From an uncultured Clostridium sp. (GTDB taxonomy: Bacteria; Bacillota_I; Bacilli_A; RF39; UBA660), in NCBI GenBank assembly GCA_946402315.1, contig CAMIWC010000003.1:12879-76878 (forward strand): 64,000 nucleotides of DNA, in the 5' to 3' direction. The position numbers and the translations under genes were made by a program. Of the stretch, positions 10,991 through 62,563 are shown in pieces. The notes beneath the pieces are model-generated. The model saw nothing but the letters and a program-made list of their open reading frames with translations, searched no databases and was not told the DNA's origin. The number at the start of each line of letters is the position of its first letter. Within the stretch, counting starts at the first letter, position 1.

Positions 10991-11836
10991 ATGGAAATAA
11001 TTGTAGGTATAAGTGCATGCTTCTGTAGTGGAGTTCAACTATCAGTAGACAAAACAAAAGATTTATTAAAATCTAAAGAAACTTGCTACTGTTTAGGTTC
11101 ATTGGTACATAATAAAGAAGTAATTAAAGATTTAGAAAAAAATGGTCTTGTAATTATAGATAGTTTAGATGAAGTAGAAGATGATTCTTCTGTTATAGTA
11201 AGAGCTCATGGTATTCCTAAAGAAGTATATGAAGAAGCAGAAAGAAGAAATATTACTTTAATAGATTTAACTTGTCCTAGAGTTCTTAGAATACATGATT
11301 TAGTTAAGAAAGATAATAATTTTATAATTCTATTTGGAGAAGAAGGTCATCCCGAAGTAGTGGGTACACTTAGTTTTTGTCGAGATGGAGTTGTAGTATA
11401 TACCGAAGATGATGTAAGAAAAGCTATTAAATATATTAAAAAGAATAAGATAGATAGTGTATCTGTATATACACAAACTACTTATTCCTTAGAAAAATAT
11501 AATGAATTAATAGAGATTATAAAAGAAGAATTAGGAGATTTAGATTTAAATATTAATAATAATATATGTGCTGTGACTAGAACTAGACAAAAAGAAACTT
11601 ATGAATTAGCGCGTACTGTTGATCTTATGATAATTATTGGTGGTAGAAATAGTTCTAATACTTTAAAACTATATGATATTGCATCTTCTATTACTAAGAC
11701 CTATGCTATAGAAACATATAAAGATTTAGAAGATAAAGATTTAAATTATAATAGAATTGGTATTATGGCAGGATCATCTACTCCAAAGAGTAGTATTGAT
11801 GAATGTATAGAATATATTCAAAATAAAAGACACTAA
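10991..11836 (+). CDS. ispH: 4-hydroxy-3-methylbut-2-enyl diphosphate reductase
   Basis: CFCSGV, LVHN, VRAHG, TCPRV, HPEV, QTT, ICAVT, GGRNSSNT, AGSSTP. Confidence 0.95.
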   Translation: MEIIVGISACFCSGVQLSVDKTKDLLKSKETCYCLGSLVHNKEVIKDLEKNGLVIIDSLDEVEDDSSVIVRAHGIPKEVYEEAERRNITLIDLTCPRVLRIHDLVKKDNNFIILFGEEGHPEVVGTLSFCRDGVVVYTEDDVRKAIKYIKKNKIDSVSVYTQTTYSLEKYNELIEIIKEELGDLDLNINNNICAVTRTRQKETYELARTVDLMIIIGGRNSSNTLKLYDIASSITKTYAIETYKDLEDKDLNYNRIGIMAGSSTPKSSIDECIEYIQNKRH

Positions 11837-11848
11837 TGTGTCTTTTTT
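11825..11848. terminator. Bidirectional terminator
   Basis: AAAAGACAC-TAAT-GTGTCTTTTTT between convergent genes. Confidence 0.75.
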
Positions 11849-11849
11849 A

Positions 11850-12989
11850 TTACATATGATTAGATTTTTCAGGTTCTTTATGAATAGTAATTGATTTTGG
11901 CCCGTTCTGTGTTTGAACAGTTATTTCTTTATCATTAGGAAGAAATTTAAATACATTTTCTACATAATGTGGATCACCTACTGTTACAACATAACGATAA
12001 TTCATCCAACCATTATATGTAGGATCTGCTATTATATCTTCTTTACTTATTCCTTCGGCTTCACTACAAGCATTTAATACTTTTTTAATATTTCCTGGAC
12101 CAAAGTTATATGCTTGTAAGGTTAAAGGAATATTGCCATTATACATACGTAAGTAATCAGCCCATATAGCCGCACCAGTTTCAATATTAGATTCTAGATC
12201 TTGTAATTTTTCTGCAGTAACATAAATAGTATCATATTGATTAGTTTCATAATTGTATACTCTAAGTGTTTCTCCTATATGTACTGATTTTTGAATTTGC
12301 ATTATTCCTTCAGCAGCACCTTTACCAACATTTTCATAATGTTTACCGCTTCCTTCTTGAGCAGCGATAGCAATTAATAGTTCAGGATCAACTCCATATC
12401 TATTACCATATTTTACAAAGTATTCTTCATATCTTCTTGCATTTTGGACGCAAACTGGATCTCCTTCTTTATTATATGAATATGAGAAAGTATTTCCTTC
12501 TTCATAATCTTCAGTTACTTCAGGCTCTTCAGTATCATAAACTATAGAAGAAGAATCATAAATAATATCATCTGGATAAGTAGGCATATCTCCTTTTGTT
12601 TCGATATAATCAGGTGGAAGATTAGGAACATCAGTAGTAGTACGATTTTTAGCTAAATTAATTGCTCCTGTAATAGTTAATGCAGCAGCAACTATAACAG
12701 CAGTTGCTTTTGGATATGATTTTACTAGTGCAATTGGTACTTTAGGCAGATTATATATTATTAGTTTAACTTTATTTCTTTTTATATATCTTTCATATTC
12801 ATCAATAATTGAACTAATTCTTCCGTGTACTGTACCATCTTCTTCTAATGATGCTTCTTTATCTTCACAAATAGAAGCTAATTTTTCTAAATGATCTATA
12901 TCTCTAATAGTTTTAACAGTATGATCTACATATATTTTGGCATAAGGACCTTTTTCATCTCTAAAGAATTGTATTCTTTTTCTTGCCAT
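11850..12989 (-). CDS. Membrane-anchored lytic transglycosylase (SLT domain)
   Basis: TM helix then GVDPELLIAIAAQEG, GIMQI, NIETGA, AYNFGPGN. Confidence 0.85.
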   Translation of the reverse strand: MARKRIQFFRDEKGPYAKIYVDHTVKTIRDIDHLEKLASICEDKEASLEEDGTVHGRISSIIDEYERYIKRNKVKLIIYNLPKVPIALVKSYPKATAVIVAAALTITGAINLAKNRTTTDVPNLPPDYIETKGDMPTYPDDIIYDSSSIVYDTEEPEVTEDYEEGNTFSYSYNKEGDPVCVQNARRYEEYFVKYGNRYGVDPELLIAIAAQEGSGKHYENVGKGAAEGIMQIQKSVHIGETLRVYNYETNQYDTIYVTAEKLQDLESNIETGAAIWADYLRMYNGNIPLTLQAYNFGPGNIKKVLNACSEAEGISKEDIIADPTYNGWMNYRYVVTVGDPHYVENVFKFLPNDKEITVQTQNGPKSITIHKEPEKSNHM

Positions 12990-54782: not shown

Positions 54783-55802
54783 ATGAATCAATTAAAAATT
54801 GGAAGATTTATTAAAGAAAGAAGAAAAGAAAAGAATTTAACTCAAGAAGTATTGGCAGAAAAATTAAGAGTATCTAATCGAACTATATCTAAATGGGAAA
54901 ATGGTAATAGTATTCCAGATTATTCTATACTAAATGATTTATGTAAAGAATTAGATATTTCAATAGATGAATTATTTAAAGGAGAAAAAATTAATAAAAA
55001 TAATTATAAACAATTAGAAGAATTATTTAAATTAGATAAAAAGAAGAGAAGAAAAAGACTAATACTTATATTATTTTTAGTATTAATATTTTTATTTCTA
55101 ATGTATAAACTATTTATCTTTAATTTTTACATAACTAGAAATAAATCTGATCACCAAGATAATACTTTTCCCTATAATGAAAACATTTCAGATTTAACTA
55201 TTAAAAATAATGATAATGCTAATACAACTATAGATGATAAATTACATATTTATATTCCAGATAATTTTGTTCTAGTAACTGATAAATCTAAATCTCACTT
55301 TGTTAAAGATAACTGTAATACATATATAAATAATCTAGATGATAATAAATTCGATTCAGCTATCATAGTATGTAATAATGATTATGATAATATAATTAAC
55401 TTAGATCATTATGAAATAAATAATTCTATTATTCCATTTTTAGATGTAACTTCTACATTAAAGAAAAACAAAATTAATGATGTAATAGATATCATGAAAT
55501 ATTATCAAAAGCACTACAAAGATAAATTAAATATATTTACTAGTACTAATAAATTAAAGATGTATTACATCTCTAAAAAATATATAGATGAAGTAATACC
55601 TACATATAATAGTTTCTATTATATAAATGGTGATTTATATGGATATTTATTAAATAATAGTAATATTAATTATCAAATAAACATTTATTTTGAAGAAGAA
55701 AATCAAGATTATTCTTATAGTATTTCCTTTATAAATAATAAAGTAGAATACTTTAATTTAGATAATACTCTAGAAATAGTTAAAAGTATAAAAGTAGATT
55801 AA
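54783..55802 (+). CDS. XRE-family HTH regulator with TM and extracellular domain
   Basis: LTQEVLAEKLRVSNRTISKWENG then a TM helix. Confidence 0.85.
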   Translation: MNQLKIGRFIKERRKEKNLTQEVLAEKLRVSNRTISKWENGNSIPDYSILNDLCKELDISIDELFKGEKINKNNYKQLEELFKLDKKKRRKRLILILFLVLIFLFLMYKLFIFNFYITRNKSDHQDNTFPYNENISDLTIKNNDNANTTIDDKLHIYIPDNFVLVTDKSKSHFVKDNCNTYINNLDDNKFDSAIIVCNNDYDNIINLDHYEINNSIIPFLDVTSTLKKNKINDVIDIMKYYQKHYKDKLNIFTSTNKLKMYYISKKYIDEVIPTYNSFYYINGDLYGYLLNNSNINYQINIYFEEENQDYSYSISFINNKVEYFNLDNTLEIVKSIKVD

Positions 55803-55863
55803 TTCTACTTTTTTTGTTATAATTAAAAGGATTATTATTCTATTTAATAGTATAAGGAGATTT

Positions 55864-56529
55864 ATGGAAGTAAAAAGTATAAGTGAAATAAATGGTATAA
55901 ATTTAGTAGAAAATACTGATTTAAATATTTTATCAGTAGGTATAAGTACTGCTGGTAATGCTGAAATAGAAATGGCTAAAAAGAATCCTAATTGTCATAT
56001 TATTGCAACTACTATAGATGAAGAGGGTATAAAACTAACTAAAGAAGTAATAACTAAGCAAGGATTAGAAGATAGAATAGAATTAAAGATAGAAGATATA
56101 TCTAAAAAAATGAAATATAAAGATAACTACTTTGATTATATTTATGCTAGATTAGTTCTTCATTATTTAGATAATGAAAAATTAAAGAATGCATTAACTG
56201 AAATATATAGAGTATTAAATACAAATGGAAAATTTTTTATTGTAGTACGTAGTATAAATGCATGGGAAACTAAATTAGAGGGAACTTCTTATGATGATGT
56301 AACAGGTTTAACTAAATGTATTGATCTTAAATCAAAAGATACAGATAGTATTAAATATTATTATAGAAGATTACATAGTAAAGAATCTATTACTAAATTT
56401 CTAGAAGAAGCTGGATTTAAAATAGAACACATAAAAATATATGATGAATATTTAAGTATTGATTATAATAGAAAACAAATGAACGATAAGCCTAGTGAAC
56501 TTATAGAAGTTTTAGCACGAAAAGTTTAG
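55864..56529 (+). CDS. Class I SAM-dependent methyltransferase
   Basis: ILSVGISTAG, FDYIYARLVLHYL, RVLNTNGKFFI. Confidence 0.82.
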   Translation: MEVKSISEINGINLVENTDLNILSVGISTAGNAEIEMAKKNPNCHIIATTIDEEGIKLTKEVITKQGLEDRIELKIEDISKKMKYKDNYFDYIYARLVLHYLDNEKLKNALTEIYRVLNTNGKFFIVVRSINAWETKLEGTSYDDVTGLTKCIDLKSKDTDSIKYYYRRLHSKESITKFLEEAGFKIEHIKIYDEYLSIDYNRKQMNDKPSELIEVLARKV

Positions 56530-56558
56530 ATATAGATTATATAATTGGAGATGATATT

Positions 56559-56957
56559 ATTAGAAAAATTATTATAGCTGGTAGTTCATCATTTTATAAA
56601 GAAGCTCTTGAAATAAAAAAAGAACTTGAAAAGATAAACTATGATGTCATTGATTATCCTAAAAAAATTAATGATGATAATAAACTTGAATATAAAAAAA
56701 CATATGAAAACTTTTATAATAATTTAAATAAAACAAACGATTTATTATTACTTAATATGGATAAAAAAGGAATTGAAGGTTATATTGGATATGAATCTTT
56801 TGCGGAATTAAGTTATTTAATTGTAAATAAAATACAAACTAATAAAAATCATAAAATATATATTTATAAAATGCCAAGCACTAGAGTTGGATGTTATGAT
56901 GAAATAAAACAATTTTTAGATATTGGTTATATTGAAATATTTAAAAATAATAACTAA
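56559..56957 (+). CDS. Hypothetical 132-aa protein with probable ATT start (NDT/Maf-like flavodoxin-type fold)
   Basis: Frame is open ~200 nt upstream of the track ATG (56757); GGAGATGAT RBS then ATT-AGA-AAA-ATT; RKIIIAGSSSF...LLLNMDKKGIEGYIGYESFAEL. Confidence 0.6.
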   Translation: MRKIIIAGSSSFYKEALEIKKELEKINYDVIDYPKKINDDNKLEYKKTYENFYNNLNKTNDLLLLNMDKKGIEGYIGYESFAELSYLIVNKIQTNKNHKIYIYKMPSTRVGCYDEIKQFLDIGYIEIFKNNN

Positions 56958-56966
56958 GGAGAATTT

Positions 56967-57431
56967 ATGTTAAGAATTTTTGATAAGGATAAAGAAATAA
57001 AATATGATATTAATACATATATAACTGATATATTTCCATTAGAGAATTTTTCTGCTTTTGGATTAACTATGGATGGAATATATTTTAAAACAGGTGAACA
57101 CGCATTCCAATATTTAAAATTTAAAGATAAGGATATATGTAACAAAATAATCAACTGCAACAACCCATATGAAGCAAGAATATTGGGTGGGGAGAACAAG
57201 AGTAAAAGAATTCCAAATTGGTCTGAAGTTAAATATGATTATTTAGAAAAAGTATTTAGATTAAAAGTTGAACAAGATCCTAAAGTCAAAGAAGCTTTAC
57301 TTGCTACTAAAGATTATCAAATATGTGAATACTGTGTTGATGAAGATACTGAATGGGGATTAGACAAAAATGGTAATGGAGAAAATAGATTAGGTAAAGC
57401 ATGGATGAATGTTAGAAATAGTCTAAGATAG
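56967..57431 (+). CDS. NADAR (YbiA-like) family protein
   Basis: LENFSAF, FKTGEHAFQYLKF, NWSEVK, LLAT, EWG...GENRLGKAWMNVR. Confidence 0.88.
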   Translation: MLRIFDKDKEIKYDINTYITDIFPLENFSAFGLTMDGIYFKTGEHAFQYLKFKDKDICNKIINCNNPYEARILGGENKSKRIPNWSEVKYDYLEKVFRLKVEQDPKVKEALLATKDYQICEYCVDEDTEWGLDKNGNGENRLGKAWMNVRNSLR

Positions 57432-57600
57432 ATTATTCATAGGTATCATTTTTTATATACGAGAAATAACTAGGTAAAGAATTACTATAAATGATGAAAA
57501 TATAATTGAATCAGATAATTCTAGAAAAAATATTTTGATAGAGAAAATAAAAATATTATAAAAATAATAAAAATGAAATTAAAAAAATAGAGGTGATACT

Positions 57601-57876
57601 ATGGTAATATTTTGTACAGCATATTATGTACTAAGTTATATTCAATCAATACCACAAATAATTAAACTAATAAAAAATAAATCAAGTAATGATTATAGTT
57701 TAGGTACAATAGCATTAAAATTATTAGCTTTAATATGTTGGTCATTATATATATTTACATCCGTACAAAGTATTGTTGTATATATAGGAACAATTACTGA
57801 TTTAATATTACTTCTATTTGAAGATTTTTTAATTATTAAATACTATAAATTTAATATAAAAAGGAGAAATGCTTAA
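57601..57876 (+). CDS. PQ-loop / SemiSWEET-like small membrane protein
   Basis: IPQIIKLIKNKSSNDYSL; three TMs. Confidence 0.8.
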   Translation: MVIFCTAYYVLSYIQSIPQIIKLIKNKSSNDYSLGTIALKLLALICWSLYIFTSVQSIVVYIGTITDLILLLFEDFLIIKYYKFNIKRRNA

Positions 57877-58271
57877 TGAATACATTCAATATTATTAATG
57901 AATTAGTTGTATCAAATATAACTGAGTCAATAGAGTTTTATAATAATTATTTTGGATTTGTTGTAGAACAGACTGATGGAAATCCAATATCATGGGTACA
58001 ATTAAGTAAAAATGGTGAAACACTAATGTTAGAAGATTACAAGATAGTAGAAAGTGAGATTCATAATTATCCCAAAAAAGCAAATAGTAGTAATATAATA
58101 AAGTTCGAATATAATAATTTAGATGAATTTAAAGAACTATATAATAAACTTAAAGAAAACAAAATAGAATTTATAATAGAATATACAGAAACTGATTATG
58201 GCAAAGTAGAATTTGGAATATATGATTTGGATAGAAATATTATATTAATTTCATCATTTATGAATATTTAA
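57876..58271 (+). CDS. VOC/glyoxalase family protein
   Basis: LVVSNITESIEFY...FGF, TDYGKVEFGIYDLDRN. Confidence 0.85.
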   Translation: MNTFNIINELVVSNITESIEFYNNYFGFVVEQTDGNPISWVQLSKNGETLMLEDYKIVESEIHNYPKKANSSNIIKFEYNNLDEFKELYNKLKENKIEFIIEYTETDYGKVEFGIYDLDRNIILISSFMNI

Positions 58272-58349
58272 ATAATTAATTGATTAATGATGTTTTAAAG
58301 GGATAATAAATTGATTAAAATGAATTAGATAATATAAAAAGGTGATATT

Positions 58350-59513
58350 ATGGATGAAAAATTAAAGAAAAAGAATCATTTTATTCATTTTATTGAAAAA
58401 TGGTTTATTATTGGTATTATATTATTTATTATCATTCAGCTTACTGCTTTAAAAATAATAGATGCTTTTATTCCAAAAAATCAAAGACTTAATTATGACC
58501 AATATGAAGAATATGATAAAGATTATATTGGTCATTGGTACAATGGAACTTTCTTCATTACTATGACTGTTAATGAAAATTTTGAAAGTCAAGAAAAGTA
58601 TGAAGAAATGAACGAAAAATGTCAAAATGATTTAGGAAGAAAAATATGCTTTTTTGCAGGAAATATAGCTATAATAGTAGGTTTTTCATTTTTATGTATT
58701 GCTGCATATAATGAAAGAAAAATGAAACTATTAAAAGGTTATACTCCTAATTATATTATTCTAGGAGGACTATTTTTATTAATATATAAAATAATTGAAG
58801 AAATTGATTTATATATAGAGGTATTGTATTGGAATAAATATAGTAAAGGTTTTTTAAATACCGTTAGTTATTACCCACAAATGCATTATATATTTATTAT
58901 TCCAATGTTACTTATTTTTATGGGTTTAATAATTAGACAAAAACAAAGAAAAAATCTTAAATTATCAATAAATAATAATGAAAAAATAATTAAAATAGTT
59001 AGTGTTTTTACATTAATAATTGGTTTATCTTTTATTCTATATAGATTTGGAATAAGATTGTATGAATTAATGAATATGAATTCAAGTATAAATATTAGAC
59101 TGCCATTTTATTATTATATTTTTGATTTACCAAGAAGTTATGCTTCATCAGCTGCATATTCAAAATTAATTATATTGAGATTTATAAAAGATTTACCTAT
59201 TTTTATAACCTCAACTAGTTCTTTAATTTTGTTTTATAAAATAGTTTTATCTTCTATAAATAGTAAAATAATATCAAAAGAAAATAATAAGAGATATAGA
59301 ATTATCTTTATTTCATTAATAGTTGCTTCATTAATATTTAATATTTTAGGATTATATGAAGTTAAATTATTAAATAATGAATTCTTATATCAATATAAAG
59401 ATGCAACTTATACAATTGCTTTAAGAAGCATAACAGAACCATTATTATATGGATTATTTATATATATATTTAAACATTATATAGAATTAGCTTATACTAT
59501 GAAAGATAAATAA
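58350..59513 (+). CDS. Multi-pass membrane protein (possibly DUF2975-like)
   Basis: About 8 hydrophobic helices; family guess is weak. Confidence 0.6.
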   Translation: MDEKLKKKNHFIHFIEKWFIIGIILFIIIQLTALKIIDAFIPKNQRLNYDQYEEYDKDYIGHWYNGTFFITMTVNENFESQEKYEEMNEKCQNDLGRKICFFAGNIAIIVGFSFLCIAAYNERKMKLLKGYTPNYIILGGLFLLIYKIIEEIDLYIEVLYWNKYSKGFLNTVSYYPQMHYIFIIPMLLIFMGLIIRQKQRKNLKLSINNNEKIIKIVSVFTLIIGLSFILYRFGIRLYELMNMNSSINIRLPFYYYIFDLPRSYASSAAYSKLIILRFIKDLPIFITSTSSLILFYKIVLSSINSKIISKENNKRYRIIFISLIVASLIFNILGLYEVKLLNNEFLYQYKDATYTIALRSITEPLLYGLFIYIFKHYIELAYTMKDK

Positions 59514-59533
59514 TTTAAAAAGAGGTGAAATAA

Positions 59534-59881
59534 ATGATTATGCATTTGGATCCAGATGTATTTGAAGTTGTAAAATATGGTATTAAGAATATTGAAGCAA
59601 GAGTAAATGATGAAAAAAGAAGAAAATTAAAAGTTGGAGATAAAATAACAATTCTAAAAAGATTAGAAGAAACCGAACAAATTACAGCTATAGTAGAAGA
59701 TTTAAATTATTATGATAATTTTATTGATTTAGTTGCAGATTATACAATTGAAGAACTATATTTAAAAAAATATACAAAAGAAGATTATATAAATTTGTTA
59801 AAAAGATTTTATTCGGATGAAGAAATAAATCAAAATGGTGTTGTAGCTATAAAATTCAAAATTATAGATAGAATTAATTAA
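59534..59881 (+). CDS. ASCH domain protein
   Basis: GIKNIEARVNDEKRRKLKVGDKI. Confidence 0.88.
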   Translation: MIMHLDPDVFEVVKYGIKNIEARVNDEKRRKLKVGDKITILKRLEETEQITAIVEDLNYYDNFIDLVADYTIEELYLKKYTKEDYINLLKRFYSDEEINQNGVVAIKFKIIDRIN

Positions 59882-59945
59882 TAATATTATAATAATTGAT
59901 TCCTGGTATTGATGGTTAAAGTTTTGATAGACGAGGTGAATTTGA

Positions 59946-60389
59946 ATGGATAAAAAAATAAGAAAAGCAGTTAGAACGTACCTAATAGAAGATAATAGAG
60001 TTGTTGTTATAAATTATAAAGAACATGATAGTGGATATTATGATATTCCTGGTGGAAAAATTGAAGATGGTGAAACTGCTTATGAAACATCTATAAGGGA
60101 GTTTAAAGAAGAAACTGGTATAACAATTACAAGACAACATTGTATCGGCCATAATACTATTGAATATCCTGAAAGAATATTTGAATTTGATGTGTTTGTT
60201 GTTGATGAGTATTCTGGTGAACCTCTTGAATTTGAAGAAAATAAATCTATGTGGTTTAATATAGCTGATTTATATAAAGAAAGAAAATTATTTCCAAGTA
60301 TTGGAGTAATAAAATATCTAAAAGATAATATGAATATAAAAGTAGATTGTGATAGTAATCATAAGATATTAAGTATTGAAAATAAATAA
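59946..60389 (+). CDS. NUDIX hydrolase
   Basis: Nudix box PGGKIEDGETAYETSIREFKEETG. Confidence 0.92.
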   Translation: MDKKIRKAVRTYLIEDNRVVVINYKEHDSGYYDIPGGKIEDGETAYETSIREFKEETGITITRQHCIGHNTIEYPERIFEFDVFVVDEYSGEPLEFEENKSMWFNIADLYKERKLFPSIGVIKYLKDNMNIKVDCDSNHKILSIENK

Positions 60390-60456
60390 AGAGTTGATCC
60401 AAATGGATGAAAATATAACTAATATAAACTGGTTGATAACAATTCAGTCAAGACCA
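60388..60456 (+). repeat. Copy A of rbgA 5'-end repeat plus downstream arm (putative att junction)
   Basis: AAAGAGTTGATCCAAATGGATGAAAATATAACTAATATAAACTGGT|TGATAACAATTCAGTCAAGACCA. Confidence 0.9.
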
Positions 60457-60476
60457 AGAAAAAAGGAAGTGTAATA

Positions 60477-60998
60477 ATGAATTATACAATTAGATTAGCT
60501 AATCAAAATGATTGCAAAGAATTATCTGAATTAAAACATCAGGTTTGGACGGAAACATATCGTGGCATATATAGTGATGAAAAAATTGATAATTTTGATT
60601 ATTTAAAAAATGAAAAATATTTTTTAGATATAATTAATAACAAAAGCATAGATTTATATATTGTTGAAGATCAAAATAAAATTGTTGGTTACATGAGTTG
60701 TGGAACGCCACTTAGGCCATATAAAGATTATAAACAAGATGTTGGATTGCTATATATATTACAGAAATATCAAAGAAAAGGGATTGGAAAAGAGCTTTTT
60801 AATATAGCTTATAGAAGTATTAAAGAAAATGGATATAAAAAATTTTTTATAAGTTGTAATAAATATAACACTTCTGCTCAAGCATTTTATAAAAAAATGG
60901 GTGGAATAATAGATTGTATAGATGATGACAATATTGATAAATCACTTCCACAAATTAAATTTATTTATAAAATAAAAGGAGTTGATACAAATGAATAA
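60477..60998 (+). CDS. GNAT N-acetyltransferase
   Basis: VWTETYRGI, KIVGYM, LYILQKYQRKGIGKEL, AFYKKMGG. Confidence 0.92.
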   Translation: MNYTIRLANQNDCKELSELKHQVWTETYRGIYSDEKIDNFDYLKNEKYFLDIINNKSIDLYIVEDQNKIVGYMSCGTPLRPYKDYKQDVGLLYILQKYQRKGIGKELFNIAYRSIKENGYKKFFISCNKYNTSAQAFYKKMGGIIDCIDDDNIDKSLPQIKFIYKIKGVDTNE

Positions 60999-61046
60999 TG
61001 AAAATAAAACAAATATAAACTGGTTGATATTGATTTAGTCTAGCCA
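60975..61046 (+). repeat. Copy B of rbgA 5'-end repeat plus downstream arm (putative att junction)
   Basis: AAAGGAGTTGATACAAATGAATAATGAAAATAAAACAAATATAAACTGGT|TGATATTGATTTAGTCTAGCCA. Confidence 0.9.
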
Positions 61047-61211
61047 TTCATGAAACTCCTATAAAATAAGGAAATACTAATATTTAGTAATTACATAATT
61101 TAATAAATAATTACTGAAAAGTATTAAAAATATATAAAAAATAGTCAAAAATAGCATAGTATTTGATACTTGATGTTGACGGTTAACCAATTAATAAGAG
61201 AGGTGAAAAAA

Positions 61212-61670
61212 ATGAATGAATTAGAAGAATATTTAAAGCAAGATGTTTTTAATCCTAAATATTTATTTCATGGTACAGCACATGAAATAGAAAAGCTAGA
61301 ATGTAGACAATCTACTGATAGCAAGAATAAGGATAATGAAGATAATGCTATATTTTTAACAAGTTCATTTTATACAGCTGCTGCTTATGCTTTCAGCAGA
61401 CGTTTAAAAGAAATAAATGAACACTATTCATTTTCTATGAATAATAACGGTGAATTACCAGCTATGATATTTGAGGTAGATAATTTGCCAGATGATTTAT
61501 GTGGGTATGTTTATGTTTTTGAAAAAAGTGATGATATGATAAAAGATAATCACCAATGTACTACTCAATATAGATGTTATCATGATTTAAAGCCGCAAAA
61601 AGTTATCAAAATTAGTTATAAAGATTTTGAAGAATTTTTTAATAGAGAAAATAAGTCTAAAAAGATGTAG
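61212..61670 (+). CDS. Hypothetical protein, possible ADP-ribosyltransferase-like fold
   Basis: AGAGGTGA RBS, ATG 61212; YLFHGT...AIFLTSS..TAAAYA...GYVYVF pattern. Confidence 0.6.
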   Translation: MNELEEYLKQDVFNPKYLFHGTAHEIEKLECRQSTDSKNKDNEDNAIFLTSSFYTAAAYAFSRRLKEINEHYSFSMNNNGELPAMIFEVDNLPDDLCGYVYVFEKSDDMIKDNHQCTTQYRCYHDLKPQKVIKISYKDFEEFFNRENKSKKM

Positions 61671-61671
61671 A

Positions 61672-61718
61672 AAAGGAGATAATCCAAATGAATGAAAATA
61701 AAACTAATATAAACTGGT
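61672..61718 (+). repeat. Copy C: functional RBS and 5' end of rbgA
   Basis: AAAGGAGATAATCCAAATGAATGAAAATAAAACTAATATAAACTGGT|ATCCTGGA. Confidence 0.9.
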
Positions 61719-62563
61719 ATCCTGGACATATGGCTAAAACTAGGAGAGAAATAAAGGATAATATAAATCTAGTTGATATAGTTTATGAAGTAATTGATTC
61801 TAGAATGCCTCTAAGTAGTAAAATCATTGATATAGATGAACTTATTGGTAATAAAGATAAAGTACTTATTATGACTAAATATGACTTATGTGATAAGACT
61901 GAAACAGATAAATTTATAAAATATTATAAGAGTCTTGGATATAAAGTTCTTCCTTTAGATCTTATTAATATGAAAGATGTATCTAAGAAAGTTTTAGAAA
62001 TAAGTAATGATACTTATACTAAAATGAATGATATACGTAAAAATAAGGGGCTTAAACCTCGTAGTTTACGCGCTATGGTTATTGGAGTACCTAATGTAGG
62101 TAAATCTACTTTAATTAATCGTTTAGTTAATAAAAAAGCTGTTAATGTAGGAAACACTCCTGGGGTTACAAAGACTATTAGTTGGATTAGAATTAATAAA
62201 GACCTAGAACTATTGGATACTCCTGGAATACTTTGGCCTAAGTTAGAAAATCAAAAATTTGCTCATAATTTAGCAGTACTTTCATCTATTAAAGAAGAAA
62301 TACTTGATCCAGAACAATTAACTAGTTATATAATTGAAATATTATATAATTTATATCCAGAACAATTAAAAACTAGATATGGAATAGATAAAGTAGACTT
62401 TGATAATTTATTTGATTTATATGATCAAATAGGTAAAAATAGAGGAGCTTTACTTAAAGGTAATTTAGTAGATTATGATAAAGTATTTAGTATTATTATT
62501 AATGATTTAAAAACCAATAAATTTGGTAATATTACTTTTGATAGAATAGAAGAAGTAGAATAA
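61688..62563 (+). CDS. rbgA: Ribosome biogenesis GTPase RbgA (YlqF)
   Basis: INWYPGHMAK, DSRMPLSS, TKYDL, GVPNVGKST, GVT, DTPGILWPK. Confidence 0.97.
   Translation: MNENKTNINWYPGHMAKTRREIKDNINLVDIVYEVIDSRMPLSSKIIDIDELIGNKDKVLIMTKYDLCDKTETDKFIKYYKSLGYKVLPLDLINMKDVSKKVLEISNDTYTKMNDIRKNKGLKPRSLRAMVIGVPNVGKSTLINRLVNKKAVNVGNTPGVTKTISWIRINKDLELLDTPGILWPKLENQKFAHNLAVLSSIKEEILDPEQLTSYIIEILYNLYPEQLKTRYGIDKVDFDNLFDLYDQIGKNRGALLKGNLVDYDKVFSIIINDLKTNKFGNITFDRIEEVE

Follow-up and report, generated by a model that had tools for sequence, protein, structure and literature searches.

Repeated rbgA start sequences in an uncultured gut Bacilli genome as the probable seams of tandem cassettes inserted by a large serine recombinase in trans

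The window analysed here is a stretch of 64,000 nucleotides from the genome of an uncultured member of the Bacilli (assembly of 0.96 Mb, 74% complete, 26% G+C). Within it the ribosome-binding site (RBS) and first ten codons of rbgA are present three times in direct orientation, the copies ending at positions 60433, 61024 and 61718. The question raised by this locus is how the start of an essential gene came to be repeated in this manner, and what the junction found at the end of the second copy represents. The most probable answer, to which a probability of roughly 0.8 is given, is that positions 61004-61046 are the seam of two tandem cassettes at the 5' end of rbgA, neither of which encodes a recombinase, and that such stacks are built by a large serine recombinase (LSR) supplied in trans. 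We infer both the LSR catalysis at these sites, from sequence comparison, and the mobility of the two cassettes of the window. The features of the locus are the following.

59900-59945, + strand: T1-type second motif, CCTGGT/ATTGATGGTTAAAGTTTTGATAGACGAGGTG, ahead of a NUDIX gene
60383-60433, + strand: copy A, a decayed copy of the rbgA leader and the left (P-type) half of junction A
60430-60433, + strand: TGGT core of junction A; crossover placed within these 4 bp, TG being the favoured dinucleotide
60434-61024, + strand: cassette 1 (591 bp), with a short-form T2 left end, RBS, GNAT gene and, at its right end, a leader copy
60434-60456, + strand: putative P' arm of cassette 1, TGATAACAATTCAGTCAAGACCA, the sequence following the TGGT of copy A, where ATTCAG replaces the conserved ATTTAG
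60477-60998, + strand: GNAT acetyltransferase gene, cargo of cassette 1 and sole complete gene between copies A and B
60970-61024, + strand: copy B, the right end of cassette 1 and P arm of junction B (RBS GGAG, ATG at 60991, peptide MNNENKTNINW)
61004-61046, + strand: junction B, a 43-bp attP-like site, with P arm ending in AAACAAATATAAAC, then TG, then P' arm GTTGATATTGATTTAGTCTAGCCA
61021-61024, + strand: TGGT core of junction B, to which the crossover is mapped
61025-61718, + strand: cassette 2 (694 bp), with a long-form T1 left end of ~190 nt, ART-like gene and the leader now serving rbgA
61056-61073, + strand: imperfect palindrome CTCCTATAAAATAAGGAA, conserved in long-form left ends
61155-61211, + strand: second motif of junction type, lacking the leader, TTGATACTTGAT/GTTGACGGTTAACC..., ahead of the cargo-gene RBS
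61212-61670, + strand: ART-like gene (152 aa), cargo of cassette 2 and sole complete gene between copies B and C
61668-61718, + strand: copy C, the cassette-borne RBS, ATG (61688) and first ten codons in present use by rbgA, with TGGT at 61715-61718
61688-62563, + strand: rbgA (ribosome-biogenesis GTPase A, 291 aa), the essential target gene
61719-61745, + strand: B' arm, conserved rbgA coding sequence (Y-P-G-H-M-A-K-T) and invariant chromosomal half-site

The letters and positions that the initial annotation had reported for junction B and copy A are all correct: junction B reads AATATAA (61012-61018), ACTGGT (61019-61024), TGATATT (61025-61031) and ATTTAGTCTAGCCA (61033-61046), while copy A has ACTGGT at 60428-60433 and ATTCAGTCAAGACCA at 60442-60456. 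The three copies are alike over ~50 bp, and the 13-mer with which all of them end, AATATAAACTGGT, occurs exactly in the 64 kb searched at 60421, 61012 and 61706 only. Copy A possesses a weakened RBS (AAAGAG) and an ATG at 60403, encoding the peptide MDENITNINW. Homology with rbgA had been said to stop at the end of the 6-bp spacer, and the similarity does end immediately after TGGT (61024 and 61718, respectively), from where copy C continues with ATCCTGGACATATGG, encoding the Y-P-G-H-M core of RbgA, and copy B with TGATATTGATTTAGTCTAGCCA. Following TGGT, copies A and B have TGATA...ATT(C/T)AGTC in common, a shared 22-nt motif replacing rbgA. The right half of seam B, forming the left end of cassette 2, reads TGATATTGATTTAGTCTAGCC. 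A and B are attP-like seams of the GNAT and ART-like cassettes and the rbgA copy is attR-like, copy C being its P half. Junction A, the leftmost junction still detectable in the window, appears older and slightly decayed, with its weakened RBS and ATTCAG in place of ATTTAG. Beyond copies A, B and C, no further copy was detectable in the 64-kb window by profile search. Downstream of rbgA lie a membrane ORF and then rnhB. The leftover leader of copy A (60403-60474) is a short ORF, MDENITNINWLITIQSRPRKKEV, whose stop codon is 1 nt from the ATG of the GNAT gene, and translational coupling of the two is possible; that of copy B (60991-61038) is likewise a short ORF, MNNENKTNINWLILI, its stop codon being the TAG of the conserved ATTTAG.

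Junctions of this kind are widespread. The pattern was identified at 0-1 mismatch in ~16 of 301 genomes of the same family, belonging to many genera, and the loci of those matches show arrays of 2-7 junctions that run into rbgA. A species-level scan (one genome per species) yielded at least 120 loci. With a profile built from the junctions of other genomes only, the copies of the window being left out, full junctions were found in 102 of the 120 loci listed (at least 177 junctions, plus at least 25 leader-only matches), and the junction type is present in at least ~100 species-level genomes of small, AT-rich, uncultured gut Bacilli. The same profile matched copy A with E=1.1e-14, copy B with E=4.5e-14 and, in the leader half only, copy C with E=1.2e-7; as it derives from the junctions of other genomes, the likeness of the window exceeds chance. 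The matches listed come from uncultured Bacilli, Erysipelotrichaceae and 'Tenericutes' of the rumen and of the gut of rabbit, mouse, chicken and human; among them the densest array has 11 junctions per 8 kb and the median junction spacing is 923 bp. The sequence AA(C/T)TGGT (AAYTGGT) is the breakpoint in 170 of the 173 unique sites among these matches, and in 157 of the 173 the next four bases are TGAT, TGAG or TGGT. The right arms that follow are of four types, with junction B agreeing with the T1 consensus.

Right arm type T1: TGATATTGATTTAGTC
Right arm type T2: TGAKNNCAATTTAGTY
Right arm type T3: TGATTACGATTTAT
Right arm type T4: AAAGNACGACTTAT

A YRATTTA block at +7 to +13 is common to T1-T4 and overlaps the 'distal arm' that had been noticed in copies A and B, so that the predicted conservation of this arm across homologous junctions is borne out. 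The breakpoints do not scatter, 170 of the 173 listed sites ending in AAYTGGT, and this near-fixed position together with the conserved arms among the listed relatives supports the original proposal of a site-specific recombination junction.

A candidate enzyme was identified beside these sites. In genome G074 a protein of 412 amino acids with Resolvase, Recombinase and Zn-ribbon domains (Pfam matches PF00239, PF07508 and PF13408) is encoded directly upstream of a leader and junction. The family was searched with this LSR as the query and the surroundings of the best 30 homologues were read: in 15 of these 30 the rbgA site follows downstream within less than 1.7 kb, always on the strand of the LSR and never on the opposite one; in G074 and G332 a junction, not the rbgA site, is located downstream of the LSR; and in G106, G118 and G260 rbgA is within 2.6 kb of it. 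Overall, the LSR is found 0-2.6 kb upstream of rbgA or a junction, on the same strand, in at least 20 of the best 30 homologues. In G007, a congener whose RbgA is 85% identical, the LSR gene ends ~60 nt before the rbgA leader, and an LSR adjoins the site also in G098, G062, G028 and others. Complete LSR-carrying elements bounded by these same ends were seen in G318 (2.6 kb: junction, T3 left end, LSR, one more gene, leader, rbgA) and in G232 (1.8 kb, with a decayed LSR), and in G195 two large LSR-pair elements follow one another in tandem, with a junction of this kind between them. As a control, all tyrosine-recombinase and LSR domains were located in the 60 nearest relatives; among the genome of the window and 36 same-family relatives, an LSR stands immediately upstream of rbgA in G007, G028 and G012. 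The assembly of the window itself (74% complete) contains no serine recombinase and no match to PF00239 or PF07508. The complete LSR-carrying elements seen have T3 or T4 ends, and none of the contiguous LSR-carrying elements seen has the left-end types of the window (T1 and short-form T2); in G195 a conjugative-type element with a T2 end is divided between contigs. Tandem LSR genes (~575 and ~525 aa) in a ccrA/ccrB-like arrangement were also observed directly upstream of rbgA (G190:C33, G254:C59, G195:C10, G291:C7, G255:C17, G302:C2 and G249:C21).

The predicted model of the 412-aa LSR (L180:5779-7014; mean pLDDT 82) has fold matches to the integrases of SPbeta, Bxb1, PhiC31 and Listeria phages (9dxh, 9iu2, 4kis). 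Across 41 homologues Ser13 is invariant, with R11 and Y9 nearly so. Following the zinc ribbon the model contains only short helices (357-371 and 383-389) before the protein ends at residue 412, while longer relatives (520-570 aa) carry PF14287. On the model, the short LSRs (397-415 aa) seem to be a clade devoid of the long coiled coil of classical serine integrases. In the latter, a long coiled-coil motif within the zinc-ribbon domain controls directionality.

The units between the junctions are co-oriented with rbgA and have left ends of two forms. Long-form ends (~190 nt) possess a conserved palindrome and a promoter-like stretch, and short-form ends go directly into the RBS. The layout of the long form is fixed, being composed of the P' arm, the palindrome CCTTATAAAATAAGG, the promoter-like stretch TCTTGCATG...TGTTAAAAT, the motif AGGAATTGATATGGT/GAGAACGG.. 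and the RBS, and was seen at 61025-61211 of the window, at L071, L075, L078, L082 and L083 and at other loci. The AGGAATTGATATGGT/GAGAACGG motif looks like a second junction with the coding part of its leader deleted; its type (T1, T2 or T3) is the same as that of the first arm within one cassette. It was described from an alignment-free listing, a regular expression for it being too strict and yielding one true case. The motif of this kind at 59900-59945 is probably a relic of the left end of an older cassette, which suggests that the small genes running in the same direction upstream of copy A are probably earlier cassettes that have lost their seams through erosion. A profile search upstream of copy A found no older junctions, the one recognisable relic there being that ahead of the NUDIX gene. 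Further upstream, the 'intergenic' stretch at 56530-56966 of the window resembles a 134-aa ORF of G069 (L082 4557-4961) and looks like a decayed or oddly started gene, while the ASCH gene after this ORF in G069 resembles the gene at 59534-59881 of the window; by this likeness, old cassettes appear to be common to different genera. At L087 (G204:C24) an ORF on the minus strand (11274-12470), inside or just past the cassette array, has an N-terminus that looks, by eye, like that of an IS110-family transposase.

The 152-aa protein of cassette 2 has a weak match to ART-PolyVal (ADP-ribosyltransferase-like, E=8e-4) and homologues in 11 other genomes of the family. In G072 (L281) no other gene stands between the homologue and the rbgA leader, in G129 (L280) the homologue is located 1.3 kb upstream of rbgA, and in the congener G007 it is on a different contig from rbgA, a distribution that weakly backs mobility of the cassette. 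Several other cargo proteins recur in arrays, namely the MGIFVFAFTATGKS protein (G074 and G204), the MSLQEILLTDD protein (G074 and G146) and the xYKLIKSS protein (G204, G069 and G077).

These cargo data bear on the first alternative, which grants that the junctions are scars of a serine recombinase and takes the units between them for leftovers of internal deletions in successive large conjugative elements or prophages, not for mobile cassettes. It would suit the use of the same site by large LSR-pair elements, the lack of an LSR in the assembly of the window, the decay of copy A (weak RBS, ATTCAG for ATTTAG) and the genes upstream of it without recognisable junctions. It is nevertheless unlikely, as the units are regular (a median of 923 bp among the matches listed), and mostly contain a single complete gene, co-oriented and equipped with an RBS, arrays of different genera include the same cargo between intact ends, and one conserved left-end module precedes unrelated cargo.

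The position of the crossover bears on the second alternative, according to which the site is a tyrosine-recombinase core with 7-nt inverted arms around a 6-bp ACTGGT overlap, acted on by a Tn5253-like integrase or by host XerC/D/S. It has a precedent in the Tn5253-family elements, which enter the 5' end of rbgA by means of a tyrosine Int and Xis, with an attB that ends at nucleotide 20 of the coding sequence (PMC6079316, PMC4701971). Local features also speak for it: the 6/7 inverted arms of copy B, two Xer-like genes in G000, one of them 17 kb downstream of rbgA, and a tyrosine-recombinase fragment upstream of the array in G103. The exchange itself, however, can be read in genera where the native leader of rbgA ends in ...TTTCG-TGG (S-I-S-W). 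At empty sites (G020 and G016) this leader goes straight into rbgA (...TTTCG-TGGT-ATCC); left junctions with the same native leader (G232 and G074) read ...TTTCG-TGGT-AAAG or -ATAT; and the matching right junction, at the other end of the G232 element, reads ...ATCAAC-TGGT-ATCC. The partners share TGGT only (TCG-TGGT versus AAC-TGGT), which places the exchange inside TGGT, in the Trp codon. Tyrosine recombinases need 6-8 bp of identity, whereas serine recombinases cross over at 2 bp. A common core of at most 4 bp thus excludes both the 6-bp ACTGGT overlap and any identical overlap of 6-8 bp, and fits the 2-bp crossover of a serine recombinase.

The symmetry of the sites points in the same direction. 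In the 7-6-7 arrangement, the inverted arms average 6.1/7 in T1 but only 3.8-4.0/7 in T2 and T3, the two commonest junction types, and 1.9/7 at the rbgA sites; the 6/7 arms first described hold for copy B, copy A having only 4/7, and their symmetry about ACTGGT is a property of T1 and not of the junctions in general, for which the shared core is TGGT. When measured as mean matches out of 20 arm positions (null 6.0, sd 2.1), dyad symmetry centred on TG scores 9.4-12.8 in every junction class, as against 3.6-5.6 for a GG centre and 6.9-8.0 for a GT centre, a moderate symmetry obtained with several centres scanned. The arms read outward from TG are GTTtATATTAGTTTT and GTTGATtACGATTTA, and the count of 11/15 matches around TG reported previously is correct for copy B. 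TG is most likely the exact crossover dinucleotide. The sites on the rbgA side show no dyad symmetry (5.75/20), in agreement with the earlier view of the rbgA copy as the asymmetric attB/attR side; of the options given there, A and B are read here as attP-like and the rbgA copy as attR-like. Of the two enzyme classes that had been offered, the second, a serine recombinase acting at a central TG, is the better fit, given the core of at most 4 bp, the TG-centred symmetry and the association with LSRs.

No tyrosine-recombinase gene was found within any element bounded by these junctions, and all PF00589 genes on rbgA contigs (genome of the window and 36 same-family relatives) are 3-79 kb downstream of rbgA. 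XerC/D/S, suggested previously as candidates, are not supported as the agent, the Xer-like genes being 3-17 kb downstream of rbgA and never inside the elements. With these points taken together, the tyrosine-recombinase reading is quite improbable. As an observation on the neighbourhood, where a tyrosine recombinase and rbgA are on one contig the former is mostly 3-20 kb downstream (e.g. G000:C3:91342-91851) and looks like a conserved Xer/CodV-type neighbour of rbgA.

Local duplication, or homologous (Campbell-type) recombination through the rbgA leader, would dispense with a site-specific recombinase and could draw on the ~50 bp common to the three copies, but left junctions with unrelated native leaders match the incoming end over 4-10 bp only, the breakpoint is near-fixed (170 of 173 listed sites) in at least ~100 species and a conserved arm unrelated to rbgA follows every junction, making such an origin very improbable. 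A purely regulatory role of the repeats, as upstream ORFs or attenuators of the downstream genes, is suggested by the RBS and short ORF of each copy and by the closeness of the copy A stop codon to the GNAT start, yet is just as hard to credit, since no Rfam match was found at 55000-62000, a promoter scan of 59400-61800 was no richer than shuffled sequence and showed no terminator, folding was no better than that of shuffled sequence, and the exact mimicry of rbgA and the link with LSRs would be left unexplained; a secondary role of the scars in expression is compatible with the data.

The preferred reading, of cassettes stacked by an LSR in trans, can be set out as a series of steps. A circular cassette would carry an attP-like site, with the leader copy as its P arm and the left end of the cassette as its P' arm. 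An LSR supplied in trans would pair this site with the rbgA site (leader followed by TGG-TAY-CCN-GGN-CAY-ATG), make 2-bp staggered cuts within the invariant Trp codon, TG being the likeliest position, and then exchange the strands. The old leader would stay upstream as a dead copy (first A, then B) and that of the cassette would become the new RBS and start of rbgA (copy C). By bringing a new RBS and start, the cassette would keep the essential gene intact and regenerate the target for the next one. At each seam, the right end of one cassette (...AAC-TGG-T for cassette 1) and the left end of the next would rebuild the attP-like site of the circular form, and repeated insertion would produce the observed stack, with copy C as the next target. 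Canonical LSRs recombine attP with attB only; stacking implies that an attR-like site (P + B') must serve as a target. A further and more tentative proposal, which is possible but on balance doubtful, is that the rbgA start is an integron-like platform for gene capture run by the short LSRs of ~400 aa without the long coiled coil. The seams would be attP-like and the rbgA-proximal site attB-like, one enzyme could both insert and excise the last cassette without a directionality factor, and single-gene cassettes of ~0.6-1 kb, each bringing a new start for the essential gene, would pass freely between genera of gut Bacilli.

If true, the main reading would describe the equivalent of an integron based on a serine recombinase, and of SCCmec in miniature, in which gut bacteria with small genomes trade accessory genes at a site that they cannot lose. 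For an LSR of unusually small size it would also provide defined attP-like and attB-like sequences in which the crossover has been mapped, and these may be of use as a compact integration tool. Contigs end 0-207 nt upstream of rbgA in 11 of 59 relatives with an rbgA match (G001, G004, G009, G005, G014, G033, G019, G057, G032, G022 and G016). Repeated leaders, or cassette content that varies from strain to strain, would be expected to create such a hot spot of assembly breaks, and cassette stacking would account for metagenomic assemblies breaking at this point.

No account of LSR cassette arrays at rbgA was found in the literature searched. The sole published integration found at the 5' end of rbgA is that of the Tn5253 and Tn5252 family of Streptococcus, which employs a tyrosine integrase with Xis and an 83-bp attB (PMC6079316, PMC4701971). 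The system described here has in common with these elements the target gene and the end of it that is used, a recombinase gene at the rbgA-proximal end of the element and a repeat made up of upstream sequence and the first ~20 nt of the coding sequence, leaving the protein unchanged. It differs in its association with LSRs, its common core of at most 4 bp and its arrays of mini-cassettes, which are not described for Tn5253/Tn5252. The accretion of ICEs, IMEs and CIMEs in the manner of ICESt1/ICESt3 is similar in that integrase-less, att-flanked units gather beside autonomous elements at a single attB, but involves tyrosine integrases, the 3' end of fda and few units, compared with the arrays of 6-11 seen here. 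With regard to the enzyme, the prophage and transposon LSRs of solved structure (SPbeta SprA/YokA, TnpX, Bxb1, PhiC31 and Listeria A118-type) likewise have an NTD, alpha-E, recombinase domain and zinc ribbon with the invariant Ser motif, while their long coiled coil is replaced in the present model by two short helices.

As in integrons, single-gene cassettes that face the same way and mostly lack a promoter are stacked at one site, with the newest beside the fixed site, and with cargo such as GNAT, NUDIX, glyoxalase and methyltransferase genes. Unlike integrons, the site appears to be double-stranded and of LSR type, and the platform is the start of an essential gene rather than attI with a Pc promoter. 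No IntI-type tyrosine recombinase was found at the site in the genome of the window or on the rbgA contigs of relatives, and junctions A and B show no attC-like single-strand folding on either strand (z -0.9 to +0.1). The SCC/SCCmec elements of staphylococci, to which the enterococcal cassette chromosomes are akin, are inserted by the LSRs CcrAB or CcrC at an attB in the 3' end of rlmH. As with SCC, a serine recombinase would here insert elements at a conserved housekeeping gene, each element bearing a copy of the end of that gene; the units are in tandem, some without a recombinase, with a direct repeat of the target-gene end at every seam; recombinase-less units would be mobilised in trans; and tandem LSR pairs also occur at the rbgA site. 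In contrast to SCCmec, integration is at the 5' end of rbgA, whose RBS and start codon would be replaced at each insertion, most units consist of a single gene and measure 0.6-1 kb as opposed to 20-60 kb, the recombinases resemble TnpX and SprA and the hosts are uncultured gut Bacilli with small genomes. On the basis of these comparisons, the system may be classed as SCCmec-like stacking that works like an integron.
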